A stretch of 64,000 nucleotides of DNA from Patescibacteria group bacterium (GCA_020148145.1 JAHCRE010000016.1:164827-228826), one strand, 5' to 3'; shown: positions 4,714 through 60,407, counted from the stretch's first letter. Numbers and translations: made by a program. The notes: generated by a model from the letters alone, not told the origin.

Positions 4714-4731
4714 AAACGGTTTCTAACGGGG

Positions 4732-4977
4732 CTACCATTTCTCAATGGTTTTTTTGGTTTTTCGTTTGAGGCGCTGATAAAAATTTACCGCCTTTCTCTC
4801 GACCTTTGGAGAAACTAATCTTAAAATTTCTTTCCCCCAGATTCTATATCTTCCCCCAACTTTGTTTGCCCGGATTATTCCGTTTTTTAGGAAACGCTTA
4901 ATAGTGCTGCTACTTATTTTCAAAAAATCTCGGGCTTCTTTAGTTGTGTAAACCTCATTTGGTTTTATTTCTTCCAT
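4732..4977 (-). CDS. Excisionase/MerR-type helix-turn-helix DNA-binding protein (HTH_17-like)
   Basis: EVYTTKEARDFLKISSSTIKRFLKNGIIRANKVGGRYRIWGKEIL resembles the Xis-family HTH. The start was moved to the internal MEEIKP; the track ORF extends to 5022. Confidence 0.55.
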   Translation of the reverse strand: MEEIKPNEVYTTKEARDFLKISSSTIKRFLKNGIIRANKVGGRYRIWGKEILRLVSPKVERKAVNFYQRLKRKTKKTIEKW

Positions 4978-5079
4978 ATTTCCATAATAAGACACCCCAA
5001 AAGGGGTGTCAAGAGGTATCAATAGAGGTCAATTCATGGCCATTTTTGCAGTTGTCCCTAGCACTTGGGAATTCCCCAA

Positions 5080-5838: not shown

Positions 5839-5845
5839 ATTATTT

Positions 5846-6595
5846 TTATTTCCATTTACGAATTGCAGTTTCATAACGCTCGAAAGTTCCTGTGTCCATC
5901 CATTTACCATTAAATTTAAAACCTGTTAATTTTTTTTCTTTGGCTAATTTTGGGAAAAGGTCTTTTTCAATCATTGAAAACTTGGGGCCAGGATGATAAT
6001 TGAAAATTTCAGGGGAAAGTAAATAAAGACCAGAAGAAATATATTGAGTCGTGGATTTCTTGCCCGCCCAAGTTTTCTTTAAAATTTGGGCGGGTGAAGG
6101 TTTTTCTAAAAACTCTTGAACTAAACCATTTTTGCAAATAACAACTCCATAATCTTGAGGATTTGGAACTTTCACTAAAGCTATGGTTGCCGGGGTTTTC
6201 TTTTTTTGATGGAAATTTTTCATTTCAAATAATTTTATCTTTTTTAACTCATCACCATTAGTAAAAAAGAATGGTTCGGCGGGCTCACCACTAGGTGACC
6301 CTTTAGAAAGCCAATCTTTTAAATAAAAAAGGCCTCCAAAAGTTCCCAGAGGCTTTTTTTCTTCAAATATCTTAATTTTTTCTTTAGGATAATATCTTTT
6401 TTTCCACCAATCAAAATCTTCCCGGAAATCTCTATTAATTAAAATAGCTATTTTTTTTATTCCGTAAGAATGAAAGAGGTCAACCAAATGATTTAAAATG
6501 GGTTTTCTTTTTATTGGCAAAAGGGGTTTTGGTAACTCTTTAGTTATTGGATAAAGTCGAGATCCCGCCCCTCCGGCCAAGATTACTGCTTTCAT
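5846..6595 (-). CDS. Sugar-phosphate nucleotidyltransferase (glucose-1-P thymidylyl/uridylyl-transferase-like)
   Basis: MKAVILAGGAGSRLYPITKELPKPLLPI is the canonical NTP-transferase N-terminus. The track ORF carries a 20-aa N-terminal extension up to 6655. Confidence 0.8.
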   Translation of the reverse strand: MKAVILAGGAGSRLYPITKELPKPLLPIKRKPILNHLVDLFHSYGIKKIAILINRDFREDFDWWKKRYYPKEKIKIFEEKKPLGTFGGLFYLKDWLSKGSPSGEPAEPFFFTNGDELKKIKLFEMKNFHQKKKTPATIALVKVPNPQDYGVVICKNGLVQEFLEKPSPAQILKKTWAGKKSTTQYISSGLYLLSPEIFNYHPGPKFSMIEKDLFPKLAKEKKLTGFKFNGKWMDTGTFERYETAIRKWK

Positions 6596-14850: not shown

Positions 14851-15030
14851 GCCCAGAGGGCTGGCCCCCGCCCTTTAGAAGAAAGGGCGGGGTTCGCTCC
14901 GCTCTTTAGACACCTCTCGGTTTCTAACGGTCGCCTAGGACGACCTGTTTTCCTACACAGAGCGATACCCAATCTCCCCGACCCCCTCTGTGCTTTTTGC
15001 TAAAATAAATTTTACCAAAAATAAAAACCT
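14851..15030. repeat. R1: ~175-bp GC-rich structured repeat, 98% identical to R2
   Basis: Near-identical to 16281-16465. Contains the hairpins ccagccc/gggctgg and ccccgcccttt...aaagggcgggg, a gtttctaacgg half-site and a terminator-like cacagag...ctctgtgcttttt. Confidence 0.85.
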
Positions 15031-16280: not shown

Positions 16281-16465
16281 GCCAGAGGGCTGGCCCCCGC
16301 CCTTTTGAAGAAAGGGCGGGGTTCGCTCCGCTCTTTAGACACCTCTCGGTTTCTAATGGTCGCCTAGGACGACCTGTTTTCCTACACAGAGCGATACCCA
16401 ATCTCCCCGACCCCCTCTGTGCTTTTTGCTAAAATAAATTTTACCAAAAAATAAAAAAGAGGTCA
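16281..16465. repeat. R2: second copy of the ~175-bp GC-rich structured repeat
   Basis: See R1; differs from R1 at only 3-4 positions. Confidence 0.85.
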
Positions 16466-16821
16466 AAACACCTTTTTCAACAAGGTAACAGTCACCTTTC
16501 AGTTTAATAGCAAAATTGGATTTGGCACGATTTTGATCAAATTAGCTTCAAATTTTAACAGGGTGACAGTCACCTAGTCAGTGGCAACTAATCACCGAGA
16601 AATATTGTTCCTTCTTCCCCATCTTGGTGTCCTACTCCTCCCTGAGCCTGGATGATTCCTTGAAAATCGCTGGATTGGTAATAAATCGCAATCCTTCCGC
16701 CGAATCGTGGACGACATTAGAACCTATTGGATGATTGCGAAAGAGGTTGTTTCTATACCAAATTATAGTTAGTGAGGTGAGGGACGGACGATGTTAGAAC
16801 CTGTTTGGTTCGGTAAAAGTT

Positions 16822-17328: not shown

Positions 17329-17431
17329 AAATTTCTTAGTTTCTTATAAAAATTTAGCGGTTCCGAGGGACGGACGACATTAGAACCTATTTTATGGCCA
17401 AAAAAAGGTTAATTAAGATACCGAGTCATAC

Positions 17432-18285: not shown

Positions 18286-19557
18286 CTACATTATCGGCTT
18301 TTTCTTTTCCAGTAAATCTTTAATCGTTATTAATTTTATCTCTAACCCTTCTTTATTTTTAATCCGCGCTGCTTCCTCATAAGCACCTTTAGTAAAACTA
18401 AAAGCTACAATATAACCCTTTTTATAGCCCGCTCTTTTAAGTGCGGTTTCAAAATTATCTACAACATTACGTCCCGCCTTATCAGATTGTTTTACTTGTA
18501 TCCCTGCTCCTTCGGGAATAAAAATATTTCCTTTAATATAATACCCATCTAATCCCATATCTCCAACTTTCTTTCTACTTGATTTTGCTCTCATCTTATC
18601 TATTATCACCCAGTTTTGAAATTCAAATGGCTCTAACTTCTTTACTTCCTTTACAGTAGTCGGCATACCAACAACAATATAATTAACGCCCTCCGTAGTT
18701 CCTAAAGTTCGTTTTAATCGTCTCTGCATTATTTTAATTGCAGTTGGTGAGATATCTATTCCTATCCACTTTCTTCCTAATCGTTGAGCTACCGCTACAG
18801 TTGTGCCACAGCCACAGAAAGCATCTAAAACTACATCGCCCTTACTTGAGGATATTTTTATTATTCTTTCCAAAAGAGCTTCTGGCTTTTGGGTAGGATA
18901 ACCTTCTCGTTCTTTAGAAGTTGGTTGTATATGCTGTATTTCCCATACATCATGCAAAGGAACCCCTACATTTTCTTTCCCCCTTTTTATGTAATTTCCC
19001 TTCTCATCCTTCAATCTCTGAAGTTTGCCATTAATAACAGCCCTAATAGTATCCTCAATTACTTCAGGTTTAGAGTAAGGCTGATACTGAATATTAAATG
19101 TATAATCTTTTGACTTCGAATAGAATAAAATTGTATCGTGCATTCTTTGATAACTTTTAGAAACATTGCTCCATCTTTTATACCACCAAATAATCTCATT
19201 CCTAAAATTCTTTTTATCAAATATTTCATCTAACATAATCCTTATATGAGCGTTAGCGTGCCAGTCGCAATGTAAATAAAAAGAACCTGTAGGTTTTAAG
19301 GCTTCATACATTACTTGGACCCTTGGTTTTAACCAACCAATATAGTGTTCTATTCCTCCTTCCCACCTATCTTTATAACTTCTAACTTCAGCCTCGTCGC
19401 CCCAGACAATTTCGTACTGTTTGTGAGTAAAAAATGGAGGGTCGATATAAATTAAATCCACGCTCTCTTTTGGGAATTTAGCTACCTCCTCTAAATTATC
19501 ACCACAAATAAGCTTATTAACTTGCCAGAGTTTATTTTGTTCCTTTTGTATAGCCAT
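18286..19557 (-). CDS. DNA methyltransferase (N6-adenine/N4-cytosine, DPPF motif IV) fused to a C-terminal Mrr-like PD-(D/E)xK restriction-endonuclease domain
   Basis: IYIDPPFF (motif IV) and FCGCGTT (motif I, beta-class order); C-terminal GDMGLDGYYIKG...IQVKQ resembles the Mrr_cat D...(E/Q)xK core. Confidence 0.7.
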   Translation of the reverse strand: MAIQKEQNKLWQVNKLICGDNLEEVAKFPKESVDLIYIDPPFFTHKQYEIVWGDEAEVRSYKDRWEGGIEHYIGWLKPRVQVMYEALKPTGSFYLHCDWHANAHIRIMLDEIFDKKNFRNEIIWWYKRWSNVSKSYQRMHDTILFYSKSKDYTFNIQYQPYSKPEVIEDTIRAVINGKLQRLKDEKGNYIKRGKENVGVPLHDVWEIQHIQPTSKEREGYPTQKPEALLERIIKISSSKGDVVLDAFCGCGTTVAVAQRLGRKWIGIDISPTAIKIMQRRLKRTLGTTEGVNYIVVGMPTTVKEVKKLEPFEFQNWVIIDKMRAKSSRKKVGDMGLDGYYIKGNIFIPEGAGIQVKQSDKAGRNVVDNFETALKRAGYKKGYIVAFSFTKGAYEEAARIKNKEGLEIKLITIKDLLEKKKPIM

Positions 19558-20810: not shown

Positions 20811-20941
20811 CTCCTTTTAAAAGAACAATATAGAAATATTAGCAAAATTAAAAAACTTGTCAAGTCAACCAAAACCCCGAGAAAAACACTCGGGGCGGAA
20901 ATAAAAAAAAGAGGCAAAAATAAGAGAGTTGCCTCTATTGT

Positions 20942-21677: not shown

Positions 21678-22121
21678 CTCCTTTTATTTTTAAAGAACGG
21701 TTTGGAGGTTCAAGGAATTGCACCTTGATTAATCTCAACTTGAGACCTCCACAAAATAAAAAACTAGCTCCTCAGTCTGAGGATCTAGTTTGATTTTATT
21801 ATTGATTAAGTTAGTATTCTAATTTTTCTAAATACAAACTCCCCAGACTAAGTTCTGCTAGTAAATTAACTGACATCATTTGTAAATTGTCTGAGAAGTT
21901 TCTCATATTACTAATTTTAGATGTTATATCAGAGAAGGTACCTTGTCAAGTCAAATCCAAAGAAAAACTCTCGGGGGCTGGCGGCTCCCCAGGGTGGACG
22001 TAATCAGAACTTGGTTTTGGGAGAGGTTTCCAACTCCAGAGATAGTAAAATTACCTACTACCACCCCATTTAAATAGGCGCCCAAACTACTCCTTTAAAA
22101 CTTTGTGTTTTTTAACAATTT

Positions 22122-22886: not shown

Positions 22887-23092
22887 ATTATGAAATTATA
22901 TCACAAAACAAAACCCCAAGAAAAACTCTCGGGCGGCGGGCTTGCCATCCGAAGCCTTGGCGAAGGATGGCTCCCCTAGCTGGACGCGCCCGTCCGTAGT
23001 TCTCTTGTCCATCGAAGTTTTAACGAAGGTGGAAGCGAAGGAGGGATATTAGAATCTATTTAGTAGAAATATTTACTATTTAAGAATTACAT

Positions 23093-23698: not shown

Positions 23699-23913
23699 AA
23701 TTTTTCTTTATTAAAATACTATATTTTTATTTTAGCAAAGGTTTCCCCAAAAAACAAAAACCCCGAGACTACAACCCACCCAAGGACGGGGCGTTTCGCT
23801 CTGCGAAAGCGCCTCGCGTCCCGACCACATCCTCCCGCCTTCGGCGGGCCCCTAAACTCTCGGGCGGACGGCGGAAATAAAAAAGAGGGTAGATTTTTTA
23901 ATACCACCCTTTT

Positions 23914-24150: not shown

Positions 24151-24279
24151 GTCTAAAAATAAACCCCGAGAAAAACTCTCGCCACGTCAGGCGTGGCGAG
24201 GGACGGGCTGCGGGGTGCTTGTTTTAAACTCTTCCGTAAGCAAACGAGTGTTCTAATTTGCTCTCATTTTTTAGTCATT

Positions 24280-27243: not shown

Positions 27244-27516
27244 AAATTTTAGAGTTAAAAATCGAGGTCTTCGACCTTTTATTCTATTATACCTTAATTG
27301 CCCGCAAAACGAAAACCCCAAGACTACAACCCACCCACCACATCCTCCCGCCTTCGGCGGGCCCCTAAACTCTCGGGGGGTCCCGCAAGATGACTGCGTC
27401 ATCGCGGGACTCACTCAAAACGGCTTGCCACGAGATGGCGAAGCCATTTTTCGTGGCTCCCCCCCAACTGCACGTCATTCAAACCTGTTTAACAAAATAA
27501 AAGCTATTTCAATTAT

Positions 27517-28518: not shown

Positions 28519-28561
28519 ATAATTTTATTATTAAACTTACATTCCGACCTTTCGTTTCTAT

Positions 28562-28760
28562 TCTACCAAAAAACCGCCTTCTTGGCAATTAGAGACGGTG
28601 GGTCTACCCGAGAAAAACTCTTGGGCAGCGGCTCCGGCGGTAGGACTCGAACCCCTCTCGGTCGCCCTAGCGCTATAGGCGTCTCGGTCTCCAGAACGAG
28701 CTCACTGGCTCCGAGGGTGGGACGTAATCAGAACTTGGTTTTGGGAGAGATTTCCTTGTT
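28562..28760. repeat. GC-rich mosaic intergenic element containing a tRNA-3'-end-like ggctccggcggtaggactcgaaccc module and a gacgtaatcagaacttggttttgggagag module
   Basis: The 35-nt gacgtaatcagaacttggttttgggagag is shared exactly with 22001-22040; the tRNA-like module is shared with 35060 and 41680. Confidence 0.6.
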
Positions 28761-28860: not shown

Positions 28861-30210
28861 CTACTCTCCCGGTACGGTTTTATCGAAAAATAGTACGCCG
28901 CCACCACCTGTCCCACCGGCCACCATATAGTTTCCATCTGAAGAAATACAAGCGTGTCCCATACTCATAGGGGTAGGAATGGGAAAATCCTCGTGGGACA
29001 TTAGCAAAGTTGAATATTCCCACAAAGGAACACTGCTGTCTCTCTGAAAAAAATAACAACCAAACTCACCTACTGCCGCTATATGCTTACCATCAGCAGA
29101 AATAGCAACGGAACTAACGGTAGCTCCAGTGTTAGAATCAGAGGCATAACTCCAGAGAGGAACACTACTGTCTTTCTTGAACAAATAAACGGTGCTGCTG
29201 TTAGCCTCATCTCCGTATCTGAAAGCAGATACTGCTAAATATTTGCCATCTGAAGATAGGGATACAGAACAGTAATCACATTCTAATGGATAAGTCCAAA
29301 GCGGCGTGCCAGAATCTTTGCTAAAAAAGTACAACTTATTTGAGCTTCCTGCTGCTACATAATTACCGTCTGAAGATATGGAAATGGAATAGAGGTCAAA
29401 ATTTTTCGCTCCACCCGTTTTATAGCTCCATAAAGGCGCAGCAATTAGACCAACGGGTCTCTGACCTATGATTTCGGCATCTCTTTCGAACAAATATATC
29501 CTTTGCTGATCCGCCAAACTCGGACAAACTGCTGCCACATAATTGCCATCTGAGGATATTGATGTCTCGACTCGAGACAGGTTAAAATCAGCAAGTTCAC
29601 GGCTCCATAATATCTGGCCATCTTTTGAAACCAAAAAAAGCTCACCATAATTCTCCATACCTACTGCTATGTAATCTCCATCAGCCGAAATGGAAACAGA
29701 ACGAAGGGGAACCCACTCATCTTCCTCGAGGTCAAAAGGACGAAGGCCCTTAATCCATAAAGGAGTAGGATTATCTTTCTGAAAGAAGTAAAGCTTGCCA
29801 TCGGTAACAGCAAAAGTGCCCACTGCGATATAATTGCCATCCGGAGAAATGGAGACTGATTGGACTTCAAGGTCATCAACTTGATAATTCCACAGAGGGA
29901 TAGAACTGTCTTTTTCGAAGAAAAGAACATTGTCTGGCCCATAGGCGTCGGAAGCTCCAGCTACTATATAATTTCCATCTAAAGACATTGAGATACCACC
30001 CTCATTCAGGCCCCCATAGGCAATCCAATCCTCTGTAAAATACCACCACAACGGCTCTTTTTCAGTCTTTTTCTCAGCCTCTTCTTCAACTTTTCCGTTC
30101 GATGGAACCGCGCCTTCTTCTTCTACTTTTTTCTCCCCACATCCAGCACCTACCAAAACTAAGACAACTAAAAGTAAAAACAGAACAAAAAATTTTAACT
30201 TGTTTTTCAT
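28861..30210 (-). CDS. Lipoprotein with beta-propeller repeats (WD40-like/PD40-like blades)
   Basis: Lipobox LVGAGC, then at least 8 repeats of about 45 aa containing S(I/V)SIS(A/S)DGNY(I/V)A(A/V)G and LW(N/S)Y. Confidence 0.6.
   Translation of the reverse strand: MKNKLKFFVLFLLLVVLVLVGAGCGEKKVEEEGAVPSNGKVEEEAEKKTEKEPLWWYFTEDWIAYGGLNEGGISMSLDGNYIVAGASDAYGPDNVLFFEKDSSIPLWNYQVDDLEVQSVSISPDGNYIAVGTFAVTDGKLYFFQKDNPTPLWIKGLRPFDLEEDEWVPLRSVSISADGDYIAVGMENYGELFLVSKDGQILWSRELADFNLSRVETSISSDGNYVAAVCPSLADQQRIYLFERDAEIIGQRPVGLIAAPLWSYKTGGAKNFDLYSISISSDGNYVAAGSSNKLYFFSKDSGTPLWTYPLECDYCSVSLSSDGKYLAVSAFRYGDEANSSTVYLFKKDSSVPLWSYASDSNTGATVSSVAISADGKHIAAVGEFGCYFFQRDSSVPLWEYSTLLMSHEDFPIPTPMSMGHACISSDGNYMVAGGTGGGGVLFFDKTVPGE
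30074..30196. repeat. About 123-bp exact direct repeat, copy 1, encoding the shared lipoprotein signal peptide and linker
   Basis: Identical to 30791-30913; encodes FFVLFLLLVVLVLVGAGCGEKKVEEEGAVPSNGKVEEEAE in both genes. Confidence 0.85.
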
Positions 30211-32042: not shown

Positions 32043-33407
32043 TTACTCGCCTTCAGGCGGTTTCTCTTCTAGTAATTGTTTACAAGCTGGTTCCTGAGGA
32101 TTTTGAGTGCAATATTGTTTGCATTCCTCAGGACTAGTGCATTTCCCTTCTAATTCTGGAGGTATTACCATTTCTGGAGGCTTTCCTTCTGGAGGTTTAT
32201 ATTCGCCTTCAGGCGGTTTCTCTTCTAGTAATTGTTTACAAGCTGGTTCCTGAGGATTTTGAGTGCAATATTGTTTGCATTCCTCAGGGCTAGTGCATTT
32301 CCCTTCTAATTCTGGAGGTATTACCATTTCTGGAGGCTTTCCTTCTGGAGGCATGCCCTCTGGAGGTAGTCCCATCTCACCTTCTGAAGGCTTTGGCATA
32401 TATTTTTCAAAACAATTCTTTATTTTCTCACCAACCTCAGGACTAGGCATAAAGGTACCAGTTTGAATTTTCTCCAAAACTTCTTCTCCTACGGTTGACT
32501 TTATACATTCTAAAACTTCTGGTGGCGCTTGCTTTAATCCCTCCTGTAATTGCTGTATGCCTTCTTTCGTTTTCTGAATTTCTTCCTCAGGAATTAAATC
32601 GTGCTCCTTGGCAAAATTAAAACAAACTTCTTGATTAGCCGGGTTGTTGCAAAAAGCCTCACATTCTTCTTTACTCTGACAACCACCTGGTCCTTGGCCA
32701 CCGGTTTTTAAAAACATTTCTTTCTCCTCTGGCGTCATTAATCCAGCTTTAGAGGCAAAATCAGCACATTCTTGAAAATGAATCTTTTGAGCACAGTAAG
32801 CCTCGCATTCCTCTTTAGTCTGACAGCCGCCGGGACTTTCTCCTTTTGCCATTAAAGACACTGTTTTCTTTCCCCGGCTGCACTCTGCTGAAGATAGTAT
32901 TCCTATCTTACAAGCATAGGAGAAGCATTCTCCCATATGATCCGGCTGTGAGCAGTAGGCATCACACTTTTTTTTGGTTCTACAGTCTCCCGGAAAAGGA
33001 ATTCCAGCCAGCATAGCCTTTCTTACCAGCCTCGCTTCTGCTGCTTCGAATGGAGGTATAAGTCCGGCTTTCTCAGCAAAATCTATACATTCTTCTATTT
33101 TGGTCGGCTCTTCGCAATAAGCCTCACATTGAGTCGGGTTTGAGCATCCGCCGGGCGGCACTGCCCCCTCAGCCAAGGCTTTCATCATTTTTTTAGCTTC
33201 TGCTAATTCTTCCGGCGACAATAAGTTGTGGGCTTCAGCAAAAGATACGCACTCTTCAATGTTTTCCCAATTATCACAATAAGCCTTACATTCTTCTTCA
33301 TTCTGACAATTTCCCAATTCTTTGACCGGAAAACTAATTTGAGCAAAAACAAAAACTCCTGCTAATAGTCCGAGAATAAAAATAACTAATAAAAATGTTT
33401 TTTGCAT
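32043..33407 (-). CDS. Secreted Cys-rich repeat protein (CxxxEECxAYC modules) with a C-terminal 52-aa tandem duplication
   Basis: Signal peptide; about 8 modules of roughly 45 aa with 4 conserved Cys; the last 52 aa are duplicated exactly. Confidence 0.5.
   Translation of the reverse strand: MQKTFLLVIFILGLLAGVFVFAQISFPVKELGNCQNEEECKAYCDNWENIEECVSFAEAHNLLSPEELAEAKKMMKALAEGAVPPGGCSNPTQCEAYCEEPTKIEECIDFAEKAGLIPPFEAAEARLVRKAMLAGIPFPGDCRTKKKCDAYCSQPDHMGECFSYACKIGILSSAECSRGKKTVSLMAKGESPGGCQTKEECEAYCAQKIHFQECADFASKAGLMTPEEKEMFLKTGGQGPGGCQSKEECEAFCNNPANQEVCFNFAKEHDLIPEEEIQKTKEGIQQLQEGLKQAPPEVLECIKSTVGEEVLEKIQTGTFMPSPEVGEKIKNCFEKYMPKPSEGEMGLPPEGMPPEGKPPEMVIPPELEGKCTSPEECKQYCTQNPQEPACKQLLEEKPPEGEYKPPEGKPPEMVIPPELEGKCTSPEECKQYCTQNPQEPACKQLLEEKPPEGE
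32048..32350. repeat. Tandem direct repeat (2 x about 156 bp) within a CDS
   Basis: cgccttcaggcggtttctcttctagtaattgtttacaagctgg... is repeated with 1-2 mismatches. Confidence 0.85.
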
Positions 33408-33728: not shown

Positions 33729-34919
33729 TTAAGGTAGTAAGTCAGCAATTATTGCGCTAGAAATCCCAGTGCTAAAGGGCCCACAATCAGAAGCAAAATA
33801 CACTCTCCACCCTTCTTCTATTTCGACCACACAAGGATCGGCGGTACCTACCTCCCTTCCTTCTTCATCAATGTATTTTCCAAAAAGAAAAGTTATGTTT
33901 GAAAAACTTAGGCCATCGGCTGAATCGGCGCTGTAAATCCCCTCCATCCCCTCTTCATCCATTTCTTGGCTTCCTGCCAAAAAATAAAGCCGGAAACTAC
34001 CATCAGAAAGTTTTACTATATCTGAAGTACCAATCATATTAGCAAACATGCCATAAAATAATGGTTTTGTACCATCTATTCTGATTCCTGGTTCTATTCC
34101 CCAGCTCAATCCGTCAGATGATATTGCGCTTTTTATTCGACACACGGGCGGAGTAGGAGGAGCAGGTTCATCACAATCCTGCAAATACATTCTATATCTC
34201 CCATCATCTAGCCTAATTACAGTAGGACCCACAAGATCAGTTACTAGCCGAAGACCCTCGACTTGAAAATTGAGTCCATCATTAGAAATAGCGGACTGTA
34301 TGCCACCTGAATTATAATACATTCGAAAGCGACCATCCGGCAACTCAATTACTGAAGGCATAGCATAGTTGAATCCTTCAGGTAGGCGAGTTCCTGGCTC
34401 AGAAGTCCAATTTAGTCCATCCGAGGAAATAGCACTAACGATATTTATGTTTTCAGGATAGGTTCGTGGGTCTAAACCGTAATACATCCTATATCTACCA
34501 TCAGGTAATTTTACAACTTCCGCATCGCAGTAACCACCAGGGATCACCACTCCCTCTATTGTCCAGACAGAAGGGAGTTTTTCTTTTTCTACTTCTACAA
34601 CTTCAACGCATTTATTTTCTTTACACTCGTAACCTGAAGGACAACTCTTACTCTTATATTGCTCATCAAAACAACACCCAAAAGGACACTCTAATTTTTC
34701 TTTAGACACTTCTTCTTCAAAAGCTACCTCTTCTTCCTCCTCTTCTTCAGGTAAAACCGCCTGCTCTTCCACTTGCTCTTCCGGAGCTTCTTTTTCCTCC
34801 TCGATTTTTTCTTTTTCAGCTTCGGGGAGGGAAATATTTTTCCAAACAAAAAACCCTCCTATACCGAAACCAATTAAAATTATTAAAGCAATTAAGATTT
34901 TAGTTTTCATCACTTCCAT
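33729..34919 (-). CDS. TM-anchored BNR/Asp-box repeat protein (sialidase-like beta-propeller fold)
   Basis: Repeats SAISSDGLNWTSEPG, SAISNDGLNFQVEG, SAISSDGLSWGIEPG and SADSADGLSF; acidic linker after the TM. The likely true start is the second Met (MKTK), which has a GGAAG Shine-Dalgarno-like sequence. Confidence 0.55.
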   Translation of the reverse strand: MEVMKTKILIALIILIGFGIGGFFVWKNISLPEAEKEKIEEEKEAPEEQVEEQAVLPEEEEEEEVAFEEEVSKEKLECPFGCCFDEQYKSKSCPSGYECKENKCVEVVEVEKEKLPSVWTIEGVVIPGGYCDAEVVKLPDGRYRMYYGLDPRTYPENINIVSAISSDGLNWTSEPGTRLPEGFNYAMPSVIELPDGRFRMYYNSGGIQSAISNDGLNFQVEGLRLVTDLVGPTVIRLDDGRYRMYLQDCDEPAPPTPPVCRIKSAISSDGLSWGIEPGIRIDGTKPLFYGMFANMIGTSDIVKLSDGSFRLYFLAGSQEMDEEGMEGIYSADSADGLSFSNITFLFGKYIDEEGREVGTADPCVVEIEEGWRVYFASDCGPFSTGISSAIIADLLP

Positions 34920-34924
34920 TCTAC

Positions 34925-35130
34925 TAAAAAACCGCCGAAATGGCGATTAATTATGGTAACTCAGCCCCGAACATGGTTCGATATCCTAGCGGGGTATGGG
35001 GATATTTTTTCTCGAACCTTTCAAAAATATGAGGCCTTTCGGTCTCCCGAAAGGTCTCACTAGCCTGCTCCGGGGGCAGGACTCGAACCCCTCTCGGTCG
35101 CCCTGTCAGGATAGGCGTCTCGATCTCTTA
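34925..35130. other. Conserved GC-rich structured leader-like element, copy A (about 130-nt core plus tRNA-3'-end-like module plus ctcggtcgccct module), ending in a terminator hairpin abutting the BNR gene start
   Basis: Alignable with 36783-36945 and 41545-41710. Contains ggttcgat...tctcgaac long-range stems and gcaggactcgaacccc. Confidence 0.7.
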
Positions 35131-35176
35131 AATTTATTTTTATGTAGTGATAACGAAACAGAAATAATTCGTCATT

Positions 35177-35908
35177 TTATAAATATATAGGATTGCCTTT
35201 TTCATCTATTAGATCGTAAAAGGCCCTGCAATGGTCGAAATTATCCTTTATCCACCTTTTTAAGTCATCGGAAACTGGCTCACTATTCCAAATAGTAAGT
35301 GTGTGATTTAGTTTTTGAAGAAGCATTTGTAATTCCGAATAAGAAGATCTGGTGTAGCATGCTCTGATTGGAAAGGTAATTAGATAATCAAAATCTTTAA
35401 CAATTTCAAACATTTCATGAATCATATGTTTTGTATATTTTGCGTTTGGCAAATATCCGGTTGTCCAACCAATAGAAAGGATTCCTTTCGGATAATATTT
35501 TTTGCAAAGCTCAATAAATTCAATTGGTTCAAATTTAGGAATTCGCCCACCAGGACCTTGCAAAATATCTGCATTGAGAAAAATGGGATTTTCTAAACCT
35601 AGTTTCTGTAATTTTTTAAGGCAATATGAAATAGCTAATGGGTCTTTAAAATCTAGTTTTGCTCCTTTCTTTGAAGTGGCTATTTTTTCGATCCAAATAT
35701 CGAAAGTTATATCAGCTTTCTGATTCGGATCATGCGCCATTACAATATTTTCTCCTCTTGAAGAAATATCTCCTTCGATCATCATGGTCTTTGGAGATTT
35801 ACAATATTGTTCTAATCTTTCGAGATTATTTACCGCATGCGCCCACCTTATATCCCAAGGACTCTTAACTCCAAAAAAAGAAATTGGGAGAGAAACTTTC
35901 TTTTTCAT
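35177..35908 (-). CDS. Menorin/FAM151 (DUF2181)-like GDPD/PLC-like phosphodiesterase
   Basis: The N-terminal W(A)HAVN motif (IRWAHAVNNLERL) is typical of the menorin family. Confidence 0.45.
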   Translation of the reverse strand: MKKKVSLPISFFGVKSPWDIRWAHAVNNLERLEQYCKSPKTMMIEGDISSRGENIVMAHDPNQKADITFDIWIEKIATSKKGAKLDFKDPLAISYCLKKLQKLGLENPIFLNADILQGPGGRIPKFEPIEFIELCKKYYPKGILSIGWTTGYLPNAKYTKHMIHEMFEIVKDFDYLITFPIRACYTRSSYSELQMLLQKLNHTLTIWNSEPVSDDLKRWIKDNFDHCRAFYDLIDEKGNPIYL

Positions 35909-35925
35909 ATTTTTATAGTTCTCAA

Positions 35926-36765
35926 TTATATTATTGATAATTCTCTTGCTTCTCGCTGATTAAATAAGGTAATCTTGTCATATCCAGCACTTTTTAGTTT
36001 TTTAATCCCTTTCTCTAACTCTAAGCCTAGGTTAGAAGGAGAATGGGCATCCGAGCCAATAGTTACCATTTTTACTCCAAAATCTTTACAAATCTTAAGG
36101 AATTCTATACTTGGGTAGGAATCGTGAACAGGATGAATATAACCATATGTATTTAGCTCTATCCCGACTTTGTTTTTTACTAACGCCTTAACCACCTCTT
36201 CCACTTGGTCCCTATATCTCTTGAAAGGAATATCGGCATACTGAACCGCATATTTTCTAATAATATCAGGATGAGCCATTACATCAAACAAACGACTTTC
36301 TATGGCTCTTTTTAATTTTAAAAAGTATTGTCTATATGTCTGGAAAATATCTCTTCCTTTAAAAAATTCATGGGCGCCATTTGGGTCTCCTATAACATAT
36401 CCTTCTATGAAATGAGCTGAGCCCAGAATAAAATCAAAAGGATAACTATTTATTATCTTCTCAATTTCTTTTTCGTAATCCTCAAAATAATCAATCTCCA
36501 TTCCAAACTTTATTTGAATATCAAATTGTTTTCTGGCTTTTCCTATCTTTTGGTAATATTCTGATATTTCATCTAACTTAATAGATATGTTGGGTATTTC
36601 TGATTTTTCAAATCCAGGTATGCTTTCAAATTTTGGAAGAATTAAATGGTTGGTGAAAGCAATCTCTTTCAATCCCAATTCTTGGGCTCTTTTACAATAA
36701 TCATCTACGGTGCCAGTAGCATCTCGAGTGCAATTTGTATGAACGTGATAATCTACTAAATACAT
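35926..36765 (-). CDS. PHP-domain phosphoesterase (histidinol-phosphatase HisJ family)
   Basis: MYLVDYHVHTNCTRDATG...EIAFTNH; PHP metal-binding histidines are conserved. Confidence 0.75.
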   Translation of the reverse strand: MYLVDYHVHTNCTRDATGTVDDYCKRAQELGLKEIAFTNHLILPKFESIPGFEKSEIPNISIKLDEISEYYQKIGKARKQFDIQIKFGMEIDYFEDYEKEIEKIINSYPFDFILGSAHFIEGYVIGDPNGAHEFFKGRDIFQTYRQYFLKLKRAIESRLFDVMAHPDIIRKYAVQYADIPFKRYRDQVEEVVKALVKNKVGIELNTYGYIHPVHDSYPSIEFLKICKDFGVKMVTIGSDAHSPSNLGLELEKGIKKLKSAGYDKITLFNQREARELSII

Positions 36766-36782
36766 TTTTCTCTATTTTATCA

Positions 36783-36945
36783 AAAAATCGTCGCGATGAC
36801 GATTTTTTCTTTGTTCGGAAAAGTTCGATTTCCTAGCGGGGTAGGACGATATTGTCTCGAACTTTTTCTGAAAATAAGATGGGGCTCGGTCACTCGAACC
36901 GAGCACTAGCCTGCTCCCCCTATTGGACGCGTTCAGAACTATTGA
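36783..36945. other. Conserved GC-rich structured leader-like element, copy B, immediately upstream of the PHP phosphatase gene
   Basis: See copy A; the terminator-like hairpin cgtcgcgatgacg plus T-run lies 15 nt from the start codon. Confidence 0.7.
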
Positions 36946-37034
36946 TTGGAGAGAAATTAAAAAGAATCTTAGAAAATTAGAGCCTATTTTGGTAGGAATT
37001 TAAATAAAAAAGAGACGCATTTGAACACGCCTCT

Positions 37035-37820
37035 TTATAGTGCCCTGAAGGTTTCTTTCAATTGTCTGAGCTTAATCTCACAATCTTTGACAGAGTATCC
37101 TGGAGGATTCATCCCGCACGGTGGAGTTAACAAATCTCCTTCTTGAAAATCTATCACATCACTCCTTTCATCTATGCCCCACGCAATTCTTTTGTCACTA
37201 CGATATCCGCTAGATTGAATGAAACGACGACCATATTTAGAGGCATCAAAACTTATAATCTTAATGATATCCAAGGCGAACAATTGATTCCAGTCCATAT
37301 TCCCGCAAGTATGAATGCCGAGTGTGACATTATGTAGGCCTGGTTTTGCCTCAAGAGCTGTGAACAATCTCTTCCATAATTTTCTGTAATCCACGCTCAA
37401 TAGCCCCCGTTTTCTCAAAGCAGATTCACTTAGCCTGAATCTACTCTTGTCAAAGCTGACCATCTCTAACACTGGCTCATCTAAGAAAAGTATAATTTCT
37501 TCTGCGTGCAGACCCTTTGTAATGCCAAGAAGATGGGTATGGGCTCTTTGGATAGCTTCTTTCTCATCGTATCCATTGTAAACTAATGTTGCGGGACCAA
37601 CGCACTGGATTTTTACTATCGTAAAGTCGTGTTTCGTAAATTCCTTCAAACAACTTAATTTGCCTGGTTTTTTGATGTAATCTAACATAGCATCTCCTAA
37701 TGCTGGAAGCTCTGGCAAAAATGGAATAATATCGCTTTCTACGCTGTATTTAACAGCTTCTTTTATATCCTTGTGGGGCAAGGAACCAATTAGGGTAATA
37801 GGAAACATTCTATTCGTCAC
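37035..37820 (-). CDS. Cobalamin-independent methionine synthase (MetE C-terminal domain)-like protein
   Basis: ITLIGSLPH (cf. MetE TTIGSFPQT) and a HTCGN putative Zn-binding His/Cys; 261 aa. Confidence 0.45.
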   Translation of the reverse strand: MTNRMFPITLIGSLPHKDIKEAVKYSVESDIIPFLPELPALGDAMLDYIKKPGKLSCLKEFTKHDFTIVKIQCVGPATLVYNGYDEKEAIQRAHTHLLGITKGLHAEEIILFLDEPVLEMVSFDKSRFRLSESALRKRGLLSVDYRKLWKRLFTALEAKPGLHNVTLGIHTCGNMDWNQLFALDIIKIISFDASKYGRRFIQSSGYRSDKRIAWGIDERSDVIDFQEGDLLTPPCGMNPPGYSVKDCEIKLRQLKETFRAL

Positions 37821-37869
37821 CTTTCTACAAGTTGTTAATGCGCTACTTCTAAAATTATATCATTTCATT

Positions 37870-38010
37870 CAAAAAGTCAAGCCCCGAGAAAAACTCTCGG
37901 GGCGGGCGGCTCCCCAGGTCGGTCTGGAACCCAGATTTAAAGGGGAAATTAGGCGATTTTGAGAGTTCCAAATAACGCCCCTCGGTCGGGGCGTTTTTTC
38001 GAAAAATGAG
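37870..38010. repeat. GC-rich mosaic intergenic element (ccccgagaaaaactctcgggg terminator module plus ggtctggaaccc...aggggaaattagg module plus gcccctcggtcggggcgtttttt terminator)
   Basis: Homologous to 38535-38625 and shares modules with the 20.4-24.3 kb and 28.6 kb islands. Confidence 0.6.
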
Positions 38011-38037
38011 ACGAAGGAAAGAGTATAAAGAAATAAA

Positions 38038-38451
38038 TTACAAATCTTCTTCAGTAATTACTTTTATTCCATTTTTTTTCAATAAAGCAACTGTCACTCC
38101 ATCCCCCTCAATCAATCTATCGGAAAAAGTCCCGTCATAAATTTTCCCGCATCCGCAAGATGGACTTTTTTGTTTAAGGATTGCTTCTTTTATATTAAGT
38201 AGTCTCGCCAAGTGTAAAACTTGTTCTGCTCCTCTTGTAAAATTCTCGGTGACATCCTTTCCGGATTTCGTTACAACCTTATCTCCTTTCTGTTCTGAGG
38301 GCTCTCTTGGAGTTGGTAAACCACCCAATTGCTCTGGACAAATAGGAATTAAGGTTTCTTTCTTTGATAATTCAATAACTTTATCGTTTGGCTTACTCTT
38401 GCTATCATATCGACACTCTATCCCTAATAAACAAGCACTACATAGTTTCAT
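38038..38451 (-). CDS. DUF523 family protein (TudS-like putative thiouracil desulfurase / Fe-S protein)
   Basis: MKLCSACLLGIECRYDS...SPSCGCGKIYDG are the conserved Cys motifs of DUF523. The start was trimmed; the upstream terminator-like module overlaps the longer track ORF. Confidence 0.6.
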   Translation of the reverse strand: MKLCSACLLGIECRYDSKSKPNDKVIELSKKETLIPICPEQLGGLPTPREPSEQKGDKVVTKSGKDVTENFTRGAEQVLHLARLLNIKEAILKQKSPSCGCGKIYDGTFSDRLIEGDGVTVALLKKNGIKVITEEDL

Positions 38452-38459
38452 ATCTTTTA

Positions 38460-38700
38460 TTCTACCAAAAAACCGCCTCTGAGGCGATTTTTGCATGTGG
38501 CCACTCGGTCGCCCTGACGCCTAGGGCCCCTCGGTCTCATGCTCCCCTAGTTGGTCTCGAACCTACGGTTTAAGGGGAAAATTAGGGCTTTTTGAGGGTG
38601 TCCCACAATGCGTCTCGGTCGGGGTGTTTTAAAGCTAAAATGAGACAAATGAGACACTACTTTAGGGTATTTTTAGTGTCTCGTTTTGAATGATTTTCTC
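38460..38700. repeat. GC-rich mosaic intergenic element (tctaccaaaaaaccgcc module plus ctcggtcgccct-N-ctcggtctc module plus ggtctcgaacc...aaggggaaaattagg module)
   Basis: Its modules recur at 28562, 28650, 35090 and 37920. Confidence 0.6.
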
Positions 38701-38768
38701 ACTATACTTTGCTTGGGACCAACCAATTTTTAGTGGGGCTAAATGCTAGACGATAGGTGGGTTAAGAA

Positions 38769-41033
38769 TCAAAATATGCGCTTGGTCTCGTATTTAATAT
38801 TTTTGCAATGTTTTATTTTCTTTAAAAAACTACTCCATTCATCTTTTGTTATTTCTTTTTTCAAAATATGTTTTATATCCATTAAAGGACTATTATTATA
38901 TGAAAATAAATCATTTTCTAAATCATGAATTTCTTTGCATAATTGAAATTTATCGGGCCCCATTAAATTTTTTACTTTTCGCTTTAATTTAAAATATTCT
39001 TTGTTAAGTTCCAGATATTTTTTATTTAGTTTATCTATTTTAGCAACAATACCTTTTTCCTGGTCGGTTCTTTTGTATTTGTGTAAAAATAACCCTAAAT
39101 AAACTAACTTCTCTATTACCCTGGGATGATTATATCCATATCCAAGGTCCACCTTCTCAAAATGTTGTTCTATTAACCTAATATATAAATCTATCAAATG
39201 CTCTACGTCAAAAATCTTATTCTTAAAATTATAACTAATCTCTCTTAATAAAATTTCTAAAACTTGCTCAAGATTAAATAAGAAACTACTTTTTATTTTA
39301 TCTGTTTTTTGAAAATACCAACTCAGCGTATGAAACTGGGTTTTGTATATTTTTTCCAAATCTGTATCGCTAAATTTACTTCTAATTCCATAAATAATCC
39401 TTAAATTATTATCTACCGATTGAATAATTGATAACCCAATTTGTTTATTTTCCAACCCTATATCCCTTGCAAAATCAAGAAGGAAATCACTCCATCTTTT
39501 TAATAATTGTATAAATTTATCTAAATTTTCTTTCTTTTCTTTTTTCTCCTTTATTTTAATGAGCCAATTTATAATATTTACTTGCCACGTATGAAAATTA
39601 ATGAATAAATCACTAATTGACAAACTAAGTCTGCTTGTCATAGATAATAATAAAATTTTTTTCTTTAATTCTTTAAACAAATTTTCCCAAAAAATATCAT
39701 TGTGTTCATACCTATTCCAAGCAATCCGGATCTGATTGAGGTAAATATTTATGAGTTCTTTTAAAAATGTTTCTTTATTGTCTGCAAGACAAAATATAGA
39801 AATTTTATTTATCACTTGATTTATTTGACTATATATAAAATAATTGTCGGTTTTCTGTAATATAAAATTTGATACATTAGATACAGATTTGATAGATTCC
39901 CAAACCCAGTCGTTCTCTTTTGACTCCAATAACTTTTCAATAAATCCTATATAATATGCTGATATTAAATTTAATAATGGATTTTCTTTATAAGCGCCTA
40001 AATTTTTATCGGCATATTTTATATTTAATGAATAACTTAAAATGCTTTCGTAAGCTTCTAGTAAAAAATAAATGTTTTCTTTTCTTTTTTCCTGAATAAT
40101 CCTATTGCCCATTGATTGCAAGTATTCAAGTATTTTGGCTGTAAATCCCTCGTCATCAAAAGAATAAGTTCCCCAAAAAGATGCGGGCATTCTAATAAAA
40201 TATCCGTTTCTCAAGTTTAAATGCTTTAAATATATGTCGTGAATGTATTTTACAGTTAAATTAAAAGAATTTATCTCATTTTTTGCTAATAATCTTAGGC
40301 CTATCTCAAATAGATATTTGACGTTTTCTAATGTAATTAAATGCCAATTACGATTTATTTTATATTGCACATCTAAAGAAAAATCTTTATTTTCTTTTTT
40401 GTATTCAAAAATTTTATTTTGAATATACGCATGTTTTTTTAATTCTTTATTTATTCTTTCTAATTGCTTTATGGCGTCTGTTTTAATTTTTGTTAAAGTT
40501 GTTTCTGGATTTATTCTTTTTCTTAATTCTTTATAGAGACTATAAATAAAGTAAAACGCGACAAATAAAGTAATGACCAATATTTCTAATACATATTTTT
40601 TAAGCAAAATAGGTGTAAAAAAAGACACTATCGTCAAAAACACCAACGACCAAAAGAATATTTTTTCCTTAGGGTCCTTAATGAATTTATTTAAATACTG
40701 AGTAGAAAATAAATCAGCCGTGCTCTGTAAAATAAAGGTTGAAAAAGAAAATATAATAGCAATTGACGCTCCAATAATTCCGGCAGTAGCAAATGCAAAA
40801 CTATATAAATTACCCTCTGAGATAGTTAAATTTAAGTAAATTAAAATCTTGTGTAAAAAAAATACGAAAACACCAAAAAATATAAAATAAAAAAAGATAG
40901 AGTCAATAAATTTTTTTATTTTCTCTCCCAAAAAATGCCATTTATTATTAAGATATTGTTTAGATTTGTAGAAATATAAAAATCCTCTCTGTTTTAAATT
41001 AAATTCTTCTTTCTTTGATTGTTTTTTCGCCAT
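38769..41033 (-). CDS. Large hypothetical membrane protein: about 4 N-terminal TM helices plus a ~550-aa helical cytoplasmic domain, extremely AT-rich
   Basis: 754 aa; strong K/N/I/F/Y bias; GC is markedly lower than the surrounding genes; no recognisable catalytic motif. Confidence 0.5.
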   Translation of the reverse strand: MAKKQSKKEEFNLKQRGFLYFYKSKQYLNNKWHFLGEKIKKFIDSIFFYFIFFGVFVFFLHKILIYLNLTISEGNLYSFAFATAGIIGASIAIIFSFSTFILQSTADLFSTQYLNKFIKDPKEKIFFWSLVFLTIVSFFTPILLKKYVLEILVITLFVAFYFIYSLYKELRKRINPETTLTKIKTDAIKQLERINKELKKHAYIQNKIFEYKKENKDFSLDVQYKINRNWHLITLENVKYLFEIGLRLLAKNEINSFNLTVKYIHDIYLKHLNLRNGYFIRMPASFWGTYSFDDEGFTAKILEYLQSMGNRIIQEKRKENIYFLLEAYESILSYSLNIKYADKNLGAYKENPLLNLISAYYIGFIEKLLESKENDWVWESIKSVSNVSNFILQKTDNYFIYSQINQVINKISIFCLADNKETFLKELINIYLNQIRIAWNRYEHNDIFWENLFKELKKKILLLSMTSRLSLSISDLFINFHTWQVNIINWLIKIKEKKEKKENLDKFIQLLKRWSDFLLDFARDIGLENKQIGLSIIQSVDNNLRIIYGIRSKFSDTDLEKIYKTQFHTLSWYFQKTDKIKSSFLFNLEQVLEILLREISYNFKNKIFDVEHLIDLYIRLIEQHFEKVDLGYGYNHPRVIEKLVYLGLFLHKYKRTDQEKGIVAKIDKLNKKYLELNKEYFKLKRKVKNLMGPDKFQLCKEIHDLENDLFSYNNSPLMDIKHILKKEITKDEWSSFLKKIKHCKNIKYETKRIF

Positions 41034-41057
41034 GTTAATTTCAATTTATTAATTTAA

Positions 41058-41240
41058 CTAAATCTTTTTCTTCTTTGATTTATATCTTTGAGGGCTTATT
41101 CTCCTATCGACTTTGAGGAGTAAATCAAAAAATCCAAAAATAACTGTTAAGCCTCCAATTATGGCTAAAATATCTTTTATTGAAAATTTTTCTATTAATG
41201 GAAAGCTCATATTCCCGTGATACAGTTCGGATTCGAACAA
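41058..41240 (-). CDS. Small single-TM protein
   Basis: 60 aa; overlaps the upstream Zn-ribbon gene by 34 nt, suggesting translational coupling within the operon. Confidence 0.3.
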   Translation of the reverse strand: MFESELYHGNMSFPLIEKFSIKDILAIIGGLTVIFGFFDLLLKVDRRISPQRYKSKKKKI

Positions 41241-41464
41241 ATTATTTTAATTTTTCCATCCTTAACTAAAATTGCTCCGAGATTATCAAGATCAATAACC
41301 GTACTACAATTTAAACACCGGTAGTCGCCATCTTTAAGTTGTTCTAAAACTCCCAGAGAACTTAATAGTTTTAATAAGTCACTCTCATGAACTGCCTTTA
41401 CCTTCGTTTTCTTAAATTTATAGGGAAATGCCCTTATATAAGCTGTAAGTTTATGCCAAAACAT
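41207..41464 (-). CDS. Small zinc-ribbon protein (CxxC...CxxxxC)
   Basis: 85 aa with CLNCSTVIDLD...IICSNPNC. Confidence 0.35.
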   Translation of the reverse strand: MFWHKLTAYIRAFPYKFKKTKVKAVHESDLLKLLSSLGVLEQLKDGDYRCLNCSTVIDLDNLGAILVKDGKIKIICSNPNCITGI

Positions 41465-41544
41465 TTAATTAGTCTTTTTATGGATAAGATTTATCTACTT
41501 TCAAAATAACCTCTTTTTTGAGAAAGTTCAAGATAAAAAACAAA

Positions 41545-41710
41545 AAACGCTTTTCCCTTAGTGGACGAAAGCGATTTTTTTGTTCGTGAAAGTTCGATGT
41601 CCAGTCAGGGTACGGCGATTGTTTCTCGAATTTTTTCCAAAATTAAGTGGGAATCGGTCTCTCGAACCGAGCTCAAGCTGGCTCCGGCGGCAGGACTCGA
41701 ACCCAAACAA
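41545..41710. other. Conserved GC-rich structured leader-like element, copy C, upstream of the AT-rich three-gene operon
   Basis: See copies A and B; ends in gctccggcggcaggactcgaaccc. Confidence 0.7.
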
Positions 41711-60185: not shown

Positions 60186-60407
60186 TTACTTTTTTAATTT
60201 ACCCAGCTTTTTTAATCTTTTATATTCTTTTTTTAATTCCTCTTTTCTTAAGGCTGCTCTTTTTTTAGCCTGCTCAGATTTTTCCCTTTTCTTAAATCTT
60301 ACTTTTCTTGCCTGACGCAAAATCCCGCTTTTTTTCACTCTTCTCGAAAAGCGGCGAATTAAACTGATAGAAGTTTCTCTCTTTTTTTTTCTTGCTTCTA
60401 AAGGCAT
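60186..60407 (-). CDS. rpsU: Ribosomal protein bS21
   Basis: MPLEA...SLIRRFSRRVKKSGILRQARKVRFKKREKSEQAKKRAAL follows the S21 pattern (MP...ALRRFKR..EK.G.L.E.R.R.Y.KP...RK). Confidence 0.65.
   Translation of the reverse strand: MPLEARKKKRETSISLIRRFSRRVKKSGILRQARKVRFKKREKSEQAKKRAALRKEELKKEYKRLKKLGKLKK

Follow-up and report, generated by a model that had tools for sequence, protein, structure and literature searches.

The DNA analysed here is a 64-kb stretch of a Patescibacteria group bacterium genome (JAHCRE010000016.1; by "the window" we mean this whole stretch), in which a repeat unit of about 145 nt, predicted to combine a folded RNA, a terminator and a promoter, is present in three copies on the minus strand, the strand that also carries nearly all of the genes. 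We consider it probable that these units are tRNA-trailer modules located at serine-recombinase junctions, where they would delimit gene blocks that site-specific recombination has accreted and reshuffled. The evidence comes from the anatomy of the unit, from its left edge, which is a recombination junction, from the tRNA ends and recombinase gene tails lying to the left of that edge, and from the conserved overlap of terminator and predicted promoter at the other end.

Anatomy and distribution of the repeat unit

A covariance model, R1, was built from related sequences and used to scan the window with the filters off. An earlier note on this DNA had placed three alignable copies in this region, and the R1 matches confirmed all of them, on the minus strand and alignable with one another. 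Copy A (34926-35071, minus strand) scored 166.7 bits (E = 9e-35) with a folding z-score of -3.1, copy B (36782-36917, minus strand) scored 97.9 bits with a z-score of -4.3, and copy C, the most divergent (41541-41685, minus strand), scored 63.5 bits with a z-score of -1.1. The next-best match was a partial hybrid at 28568-28712 (20.7 bits), holding the first hairpin and the terminator only.

Read along the minus strand, each copy starts with a left arm, tRNA-3'-end-like or other, that ends in GGAGC. It is followed by a highly conserved, unpaired stretch of about 20 nt beginning with AGGCUAGUGAG and then by hairpin P1, which holds the nearly invariant GAGACCGA, with CCUCAUAUUUUU coming after it. 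P2 is a long stem (GGUUCGA/UCGAACC, extended by GAA/UUC) that encloses a conserved loop of some 30 nt (..GUACCCCGNUAGGA..), and its internal spacing varies by up to 7 nt among copies. After P2 come a variable hairpin (P3), the terminator hairpin with its T-run, and the next gene. The shared core, the long-range stem and the terminal hairpin with T-run described in the earlier note were all present; what had been called a conserved hairpin within the long stem is instead the P2 loop, with little consistent pairing inside. In copy A, the GGAGC junction lies at 35067-35071, P1 at 35029-35060, the P2 stem at 35012-35022 with 34969-34981, the conserved loop at 34982-35011, P3 at 34955-34968 and the terminator at 34926-34948. 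In copy B, P1 lies at 36879-36906, P2 at 36857-36868 with 36818-36828, the loop at 36829-36856 and the terminator at 36782-36808, and P3 is absent. For copy C, the respective positions of P1, P2 and the terminator are 41647-41674, 41626-41637 with 41588-41597, and 41542-41576.

The element is a conserved RNA motif absent from Rfam and undescribed, as the earlier note had judged. No Rfam 15 family was matched at gathering thresholds across the whole window or, with E values up to 5, at the three copies, nothing relevant was found in Rfam 15 for 46.5-64 kb, and literature searches turned up nothing. ARAGORN predicted 0 tRNA or transfer-messenger RNA (tmRNA) genes in the 64-kb window, so that the copies belong to neither class.

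Relatives were collected with a sequence pattern from the P2 region. In its strict form it was found in 7 loci among about 185,000 GTDB species representatives, all of them Patescibacteria-type metagenome-assembled genomes, so that the element appears restricted to a lineage within them; 63 metagenome loci were also found with the pattern. Scanning of the related loci (numbered L below) with R1 gave 98 matches (E ≤1e-3) in 69 loci. Multiple copies per locus were seen in L009, L069, L049, L040, L061 and L045, with 2-3 full copies 1-2 kb apart in the manner of the window. The window genes include ClpB, HtrA, DUF5667, sigma factors, Lgt and LspA, a content in keeping with a Patescibacteria (CPR) chromosome, and the window proteins share only 45-68% identity with their counterparts in element-bearing loci, where the elements score 130-165 bits. 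A near-identical element between genomes of such low protein identity points to strong constraint on the element or to its horizontal spread.

The left edge of the element and the large serine recombinases

The junction reads ...GGAGC|AGGCUAGUG. To the right of GGAGC|, the loci L049a, L025, L066 and L008 are 94-100% identical over 450 nt, covering the element and the next gene, whereas their left sides are unrelated: an intact tRNA-Asn in L049a, the tail of a large serine recombinase (LSR) gene in L025, a module termed M3 plus a tRNA fragment in L066, and a fourth sequence in L008. Because identical right sides are joined to unrelated left sides, the GGAGC| boundary is a recombination junction. 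The same flank next to different DNA was also found on comparing L060 with L002 and L021; L060 carries an insert of 840 bp, holding one gene, with tRNA-Asn..GGAGC| on one side and tail..GAGC|element on the other. In L081 a full element stands directly before a Menorin homologue (82% identical), and another site comes after it, whereas in the window the PHP gene stands between element B and Menorin.

Of 67 distinct contexts, 10 show an intact tRNA with its 3' end no more than a few nucleotides from where the element begins (Asn 7, Gln 2, Trp 1); each tRNA type has its own element subtype, and rpoD, tRNA-Asn, element is a recurring gene order. In a further 18 of the 67, copies A and C of the window included, the tRNA is reduced to its last 24 nt, from T-loop to acceptor. 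The left arm is a recombinase tail in at least 22 of the 67, copy B included. The tRNA-3'-end-like piece proposed in the earlier note therefore held for copies A and C, where it equals the last 24 nt of tRNA-Asn, and failed for copy B. The fragment at junction A (35067-35090, minus strand, ..GGAGC) is of the same sequence class as the intact tRNA-Asn 3' end in L002, L015, L020 and L021, and that at junction C (41681-41704, minus strand) follows directly after the stop codon of a Trypsin_2 gene; a third boundary fragment lies at 28631-28654. Upstream of the fragment at copy A is M3 (35091-35127, minus strand; ..GAGACGCC-UAYNNNGNUAGG-GCGACCGAGAG), which starts like a truncated P1. M3 before a tRNA fragment was also seen in L012, L040, L045/66, L049, L069 and L081, and in the window at 28655-28707. 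Intact tRNAs head arrays in L049, L060, L016 and L061.

In the locus L054, rpoD (415-585) and the element (5421-5566) are present, and ARAGORN finds no tRNA-Asn between them. Group I introns are described at position 35/36 of Patescibacteria tRNA-Asn (PMC13011429), and an intron-containing tRNA may be hidden there.

Other explanations of the tRNA-like fragments were rejected. A degenerate tRNA and an ordinary or permuted tmRNA are contradicted by the negative ARAGORN result and by the sequence 5' of the fragments' T-loop, which does not pair. A 3' exon of an intron-split tRNA-Asn does not fit, since the described introns are at 35/36 (PMC13011429), so that a 3' exon would begin in the anticodon loop, whereas the fragments begin at the T-loop; M3 is also unlike a tRNA-Asn anticodon arm, and Intron_gpI gave no match.

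The tail-type left arm reads AGGUUCUAACAUCGUCC-N7-GGAGC, and its opposite strand encodes LL(P/R)xxD(D/A)(V/F)RT.., after which come about 25 codons and a stop. In this stretch the loci differ predominantly by synonymous changes (for example L060 compared with L024). At junction B, the left arm is the severed 3' end of an LSR gene (36913-37003, plus strand; ..LLPLLDAFRTIDWREIKKNLRKLEPILVGI*; site core 36913-36942), which matches residues ~525-550 of the LSR members P0011, P0048, P0074 and P0116; the same peptide class is seen again in many loci, with synonymous changes. The L003 protein that ends in the tail peptide is 559 aa long and has Resolvase, Recombinase and Zn_ribbon_recom domains. Coding behaviour is limited to the ~35 codons left of the junction on the opposite strand: open frames across the whole element do exist there, but the frame differs between copies, and an opposite-strand gene spanning the element was rejected.

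The LSR genes of L003, L063 and L070 end exactly across a ..G(G/C)AGC| site, with their bodies to the right on the opposite strand. In L077, where the order is dnaG, rpoD, tRNA-Asn, the LSR 3' end overlaps tRNA-Asn in antisense (11584-11656), and in L075 it overlaps tRNA-Gln in antisense (11584-11655). A recombinase gene abutting the site is thus present in these five relatives, not in the window. The L075 island also carries a methylase, a SacI-like restriction enzyme and Vsr.

This LSR family comprises more than 5000 proteins at E ≤1e-30, mostly from Patescibacteria, whose members have ..YSQSP(T/M)LL in common and then diverge. Among the C-terminal tails of the top 120 (P0001-P0120), 47 are an antisense translation of the tRNA T-arm (..LLRGQDSNLQP..), 41 end within 3 residues of the crossover and 26 have a D.[VFI]RT tail; an antisense ending or a stop within 3 aa of the crossover accounts for about 73%. 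Serine integrase use of t(m)RNA genes had not previously been reported and was rare in a survey (PMC7192596). Neither the tail nor the site is found in the viral LSRs, which are about 450 aa long (L073, L074 and the L049 LSR), and the sequence pattern was present in only one IMG/VR contig; a viral origin was rejected on both grounds.

These observations suggest the following course of events. The module would natively start at the last base of a tRNA gene, namely tRNA-Asn downstream of rpoD, with subtypes at tRNA-Gln and tRNA-Trp. Its 5' edge, ..GGAGC|, would be the crossover point of the LSR family, which would insert DNA at the 3' end of tRNA-Asn or tRNA-Gln. The attP site would lie inside the LSR gene, about 35 codons before the stop, and attB would be the tRNA 3' end plus whatever comes after it. 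Integration would then cut the LSR gene and yield attL (tRNA|LSR body) and attR (LSR tail|former tRNA flank). With the element as that flank, attR would have exactly the form found at copy B. Since the tRNA body is absent and the left arm is a tRNA-Asn end (A, C) or a recombinase tail (B), the three copies would be attR-type junctions. The first ~20 nt of the element could plausibly serve as a recombinase half-site, and AGGCTAGTG is taken as the B' side of the putative attB. An att-site remnant marking cassettes next to tRNA-like sequences, which the earlier note had offered as an alternative, is largely borne out by the junction, the tRNA fragments and the recombinase evidence.

The multiple copies before unrelated genes, the regulatory signals they carry and the contigs that often end within the element would also suit a non-autonomous mobile element of the miniature inverted-repeat transposable element type, inserting its terminator and promoter upstream of genes. 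We give this only a slim chance. Neither terminal inverted repeats nor target-site duplications were seen, no transposase is associated, every left boundary consists of a tRNA end or recombinase tail that finishes with GGAGC, and relatives differ by whole gene blocks, not by the element alone.

Folding of the element and the terminator-promoter overlap

In a model-fitted alignment of 85 distinct sequences, 85.7% of the cells were paired compared with 78.8% in shuffles, and double changes occurred in 23 of the 32 pairs, with slid controls far lower. At the P1 pair 19-83, for example, CG is found 27 times and GC 23 times. The terminator (helix 5) was 95% paired, with double changes in 6/6 pairs. 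Covariation gives moderate support to three predicted hairpins. Since raw MAFFT alignments put P1 and P3 out of register, RNAalifold run on them found the 7-bp stem of P2 and nothing else. A pseudoknot between the loop CCCCG and a downstream CGGGG was rejected, as the changes are not compensatory.

Outside the terminator, G.U pairs outnumber A.C pairs by 94:38 and 193:92, about 2:1 on the tRNA-sense strand, and sense-strand folds are slightly better than antisense folds. Both results favour a structure of the tRNA-sense transcript. We infer transcription of the element as a tRNA trailer or 3' untranslated region (UTR), in which P1-P3 would act as RNA.

The hairpins might instead be by-products of inverted repeats that bind the recombinase and accessory proteins in a purely DNA-level recombination site, such as an extended att arm or an attC-like site, with an RNA that has no function. 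The 5' edge of the element is the junction itself, and the unpaired AGGCUAGUG at this edge ranks with the best-conserved segments. GTTCGAG-like motifs occur 3-4 times and GACCGA(GA) occurs in P1 and twice in M3, in some copies the 42 bp of the P2 region form a near dyad about a central GTAC, and chimeric forms of P1 break at a TTCGAG motif. Against this, right of GGAGC| many junctions have other modules, namely a bare terminator-promoter, a CCCGAGAG hairpin with a TTGACA promoter, or M3, and LSRs of the same family lie at tRNA-Asn and tRNA-Gln ends in genomes with no element within 10 kb; the element body is thus not needed for recombination. The variable spacing inside P2 also speaks against such a site, and neither the one-stranded G.U excess nor the compensatory changes in P1, P3 and P4 are expected of double-stranded DNA sites. 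We judge a pure DNA site unlikely.

For the RNA part of the unit, the multi-copy small RNA gene named in the earlier note is possible. A family of trans-acting small RNAs, each a tRNA 3' trailer like 3'ETS-leuZ and near junctions incidentally because tRNA ends are integration hot spots, appears decidedly improbable to us. Such a family would agree with a native place directly 3' of tRNAs and a terminator at the end, with loops (GAGACCGA, GUACCCCGAUAGGA) more conserved than the stems, and with high conservation despite the low protein identity between genomes. It would agree poorly with the few, lineage-restricted species representatives holding the strict pattern, with array-internal copies that have no obvious promoter of their own, and with copies in which P2 or P1 is broken, one of them beside an intact tRNA; moreover, no target complementarity was identified.

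The terminator is unusually conserved in sequence (AAUCGCC-N5-GGCGRUUUUUU), and a GC-rich hairpin with a T-run, as in an intrinsic terminator, is present in copies A (34930-34948) and B (36782-36808). TCGCCA lies in its 5' half, and 17 nt on, directly after the T-run, follows T(G)GTAGAAT, so that its stem and T-run also provide the -35 and the spacer of a predicted TG-extended -10 promoter. By consensus scan, a sigma-70-type extended -10 promoter was found at copies A and B from sequence only. At copy A (34908-34946, minus strand) it consists of the -35 TCGCCA at 34941-34946, N17 and the -10 TAGAAT at 34918-34923; at copy B (36763-36802, minus strand) it reads TCGTCA-N17-(TG)TAAAAT. Copy A has a likely leaderless ATG at 34908-34910, and at copy B the ATG of the PHP gene (36763-36765) lies 8 nt after the -10. 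The arrangement is conserved in 43 of 63 copies, and in about 20 of these the ATG of a long open reading frame (ORF) stands 6-9 nt after the -10, which indicates leaderless mRNA. At copy C the ATG is 77 nt downstream, and another promoter-like site is present. A terminator 10-20 nt before the start codon, as the earlier note had it, is thus right for A and B (16-17 nt) and wrong for C; the terminator abuts the start codon because the predicted promoter is embedded in the terminator and the ATG is likely leaderless. As predicted, the module would end incoming transcription and restart it for the block that it leads, a design suited to a site of repeated foreign DNA insertion upstream.

The earlier note had preferred a transcription attenuator or riboswitch-like leader of the downstream gene, in view of a terminator near a start codon with a conserved, structured RNA ahead of it. 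This fails on 5' UTR placement, on anti-terminator pairing and on the coherence of downstream genes, and we regard it as highly improbable. The element lies 3' of a tRNA or junction, and the predicted promoter (TCGCCA-N17-TAGAAT) lies inside the terminator or beyond it, past the structured part, which is not the order promoter, element, gene. In about half of the copies the P2-loop AAUCGCC equals the terminator 5' half and could compete for the 3' half; this likeness is lost when the terminator changes (L020, L064, L069, L058, L019), and the pairing of P2-loop with terminator 3' half, the only anti-terminator candidate, was rejected as it shows no covariation with the terminator. The downstream genes are unrelated, as the earlier note had said: a 396-aa secreted protein (with no Pfam match; the BNR-repeat protein of the earlier note), a PHP phosphoesterase, a small ORF, Menorin, EamA and many others. 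The missing Rfam match counts against a riboswitch as well.

Gene blocks in the window and comparison with known systems

Several points weigh against tRNA-trailer modules at serine-recombinase junctions. In a plain MAFFT alignment of 35 close copies, the covariation score was 0.153, a value reached by 15 of 500 shuffles, compared with 0.141, and most pairs are simply conserved; with this weak signal, the structural support is mostly conservation plus differences between subtypes. L013, L039, L033, L060 and L067 have chimeric, poorly pairing P1 halves. The P2 5' strand is replaced by GGGCUCUAGGAAGUCC in L049 (4876-5024) and L061 (202-350), one of these directly after an intact tRNA-Asn, and P2 appears dispensable in these copies. 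Together with the weak fold of copy C (z-score -1.1), the chimeric P1 forms and the P2-less copy at the intact tRNA-Asn of L049 argue against an indispensable fold. As the window holds no intact tRNA (ARAGORN) and no recombinase gene, its local history is inferred from the relatives. The crossover may always fall after GGAGC or may sometimes fall inside the T-loop, and the L061 fragment matches the tRNA allele of L049. Finally, the course of events given above accounts for a single element, placed at an array's far end, but several copies need an extra assumption, which might be excision and integration of element-led blocks or islands that carry their own copy.

Between 16.7 and 38.6 kb there are about 10 more junction sites like those of the three copies, and together the sites split 16.7-41.7 kb into co-oriented gene blocks. 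A composite junction without a full element (28560-28736, minus strand; the partial 20.7-bit R1 match) consists of an LSR-tail site (28708-28736), M3 (28655-28707), a tRNA fragment (28631-28654), a CCCAAGAG hairpin and a terminator-promoter module (28560-28590). A third type of junction (38449-38563, minus strand) is made of GGUUCGAGACCAACUAGGGGAGC (38541-38563), a short M3-like piece and a terminator-promoter module (38449-38489); a site of this type also abuts the LSR 3' end in L070. Isolated sites of the same family, all on the minus strand, lie at 16697-16725, 16779-16802, 17360-17388, 21984-22012, 27456-27486 and 37909-37931.

An ORF listed as starting at 38496 (38038-38496) overlaps the module at 38449-38489; the 2-thiouracil desulfurase gene encoded there probably has its true, leaderless start at an ATG near 38449-38451, which lies 7 nt after TAGAAT. 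The hairpin CCCGAGAGUUUUUCUCGGGG occurs at 20862-20894, 21943-21975, 22901-22933, 24151-24183 and 37869-37901, directly after ..GGGGAGCC(GCC) junctions and before a TTGAC-type promoter, as an alternative right-hand module. A 62-nt repeat (76% identical; 37936-37997 and 38569-38630) lies upstream of GGUUCNAGACC-type junctions and is homologous to the sequence just 3' of the L070 LSR stop codon. In the junction-rich region, an N6/N4 DNA methylase is fused to an Mrr-type restriction endonuclease domain (18286-19557).

Elsewhere in the window, a 175-nt repeat is present at 14853-15027 and 16282-16456 (98% identical), with diverged GC-rich relatives at 60190-60400 and ~23740-23830. All members are intergenic, contain the motifs GGGGUCGG..GUGUAGGAAAA..AAACCGAGAGG..AGCGGAGCGA and have no Rfam match; they may be a second family of structured elements. 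A gene with NUMOD3 and HNH, homing-endonuclease-like (5080-5910), overlaps the end of a nucleotidyl-transferase gene, and the unannotated DNA upstream of it (4714-5079) appears to contain a small helix-turn-helix-like ORF. Coding tandem repeats were found in a WD40/PQQ-like protein (29076-30001; 7 units, ~120-180 nt spacing) and in a Cys-rich 454-aa protein (32608-33292; 5 units of ~160 nt).

As a tentative extension, which we hold to be possible though less than likely, the system could be a tRNA-anchored, serine-recombinase gene-cassette system of Patescibacteria, a functional analogue of integrons. Blocks of 0.6-6 kb ending in a tRNA-3'-end mimic or a recombinase-tail site would be captured directly 3' of tRNA-Asn or tRNA-Gln, would build up as co-oriented arrays and would be mobilised in trans by LSRs with attP inside their own coding sequence; the structured RNA, terminator and leaderless promoter would head and insulate each cassette. 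About 16.7-41.7 kb of the window would then be such an array. Like integron cassette arrays, it has co-oriented blocks between conserved structured repeats of 130-200 nt, a cassette content that varies among relatives, and cassettes mostly without their own recombinase. It differs in having neither R''/R' core sites nor IntI, in being tRNA-anchored and serine recombinase-linked, and in that the element brings its own terminator and promoter, most integron cassettes being promoterless. An integron attC was rejected: the inverted repeat GTTCGA...TCGAAC is in the wrong order compared with R'' RYYYAAC...R' GTTRRRY and has C at position 4, and no Phage_integrase domain (IntI) was found among the window genes scanned.

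Island attachment sites in tRNA genes, displaced tRNA 3' fragments and tandem arrays belong to the Islander/TIGER concept (PMC4383910, PMC7192596). As in tRNA islands, tRNA 3'-end fragments mark the insert ends, the integrase gene abuts the tRNA, and repeated integration yields co-oriented arrays. Here, in contrast, the recombinase is a large serine and not a tyrosine enzyme, the best-supported crossover follows the last tRNA base and leaves the tRNA unsplit, and the blocks are small (0.6-6 kb), mostly without integrase, with a conserved structured module after the site. In SSV-type archaeal virus integration, attP lies within the integrase gene, which is partitioned on integration. The recombinase ORF described here likewise spans attP and leaves its 3' part at the far junction, with an att core that is tRNA-3'-end-like; it differs in that a serine recombinase replaces the tyrosine enzyme of SSV, the hosts are bacterial, and only ~35 C-terminal codons are exchanged, so that the LSR body remains intact with a new tail. 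The E. coli 3'ETS-leuZ is a functional tRNA 3' external transcribed spacer. Like it, the element is directly 3' of a tRNA, presumably co-transcribed and freed by tRNA 3' processing, and has an intrinsic terminator; it is longer, more structured, multi-copy and promoter-overlapping, with no sponge target known. Intergenic repeats of the Correia, ERIC and REP types carry regulatory signals, and as multi-copy intergenic units they also give their neighbours terminators or promoters, whereas the present element has no terminal inverted repeats or target duplications and its left boundary is always a tRNA-type recombination site.

The wider context, with LSRs at tRNA 3' ends that would be split by their own integration and with arrays of small blocks, seems more interesting than the element itself. 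A hot spot at the very end of tRNA-Asn and tRNA-Gln, served by more than 5000 LSRs, would concern an enzyme class regarded as not targeting tRNA genes (PMC7192596), and LSRs with well-defined natural att sites are possible genome-engineering tools. A terminator hairpin inside the promoter of a leaderless gene would be an unusually compact design. If the array reading is true, it would be a second, mechanistically independent invention of integron-like gene capture, and the whole would give a concrete picture of how accessory genes are exchanged and expressed in the ultra-small, host-dependent Patescibacteria.

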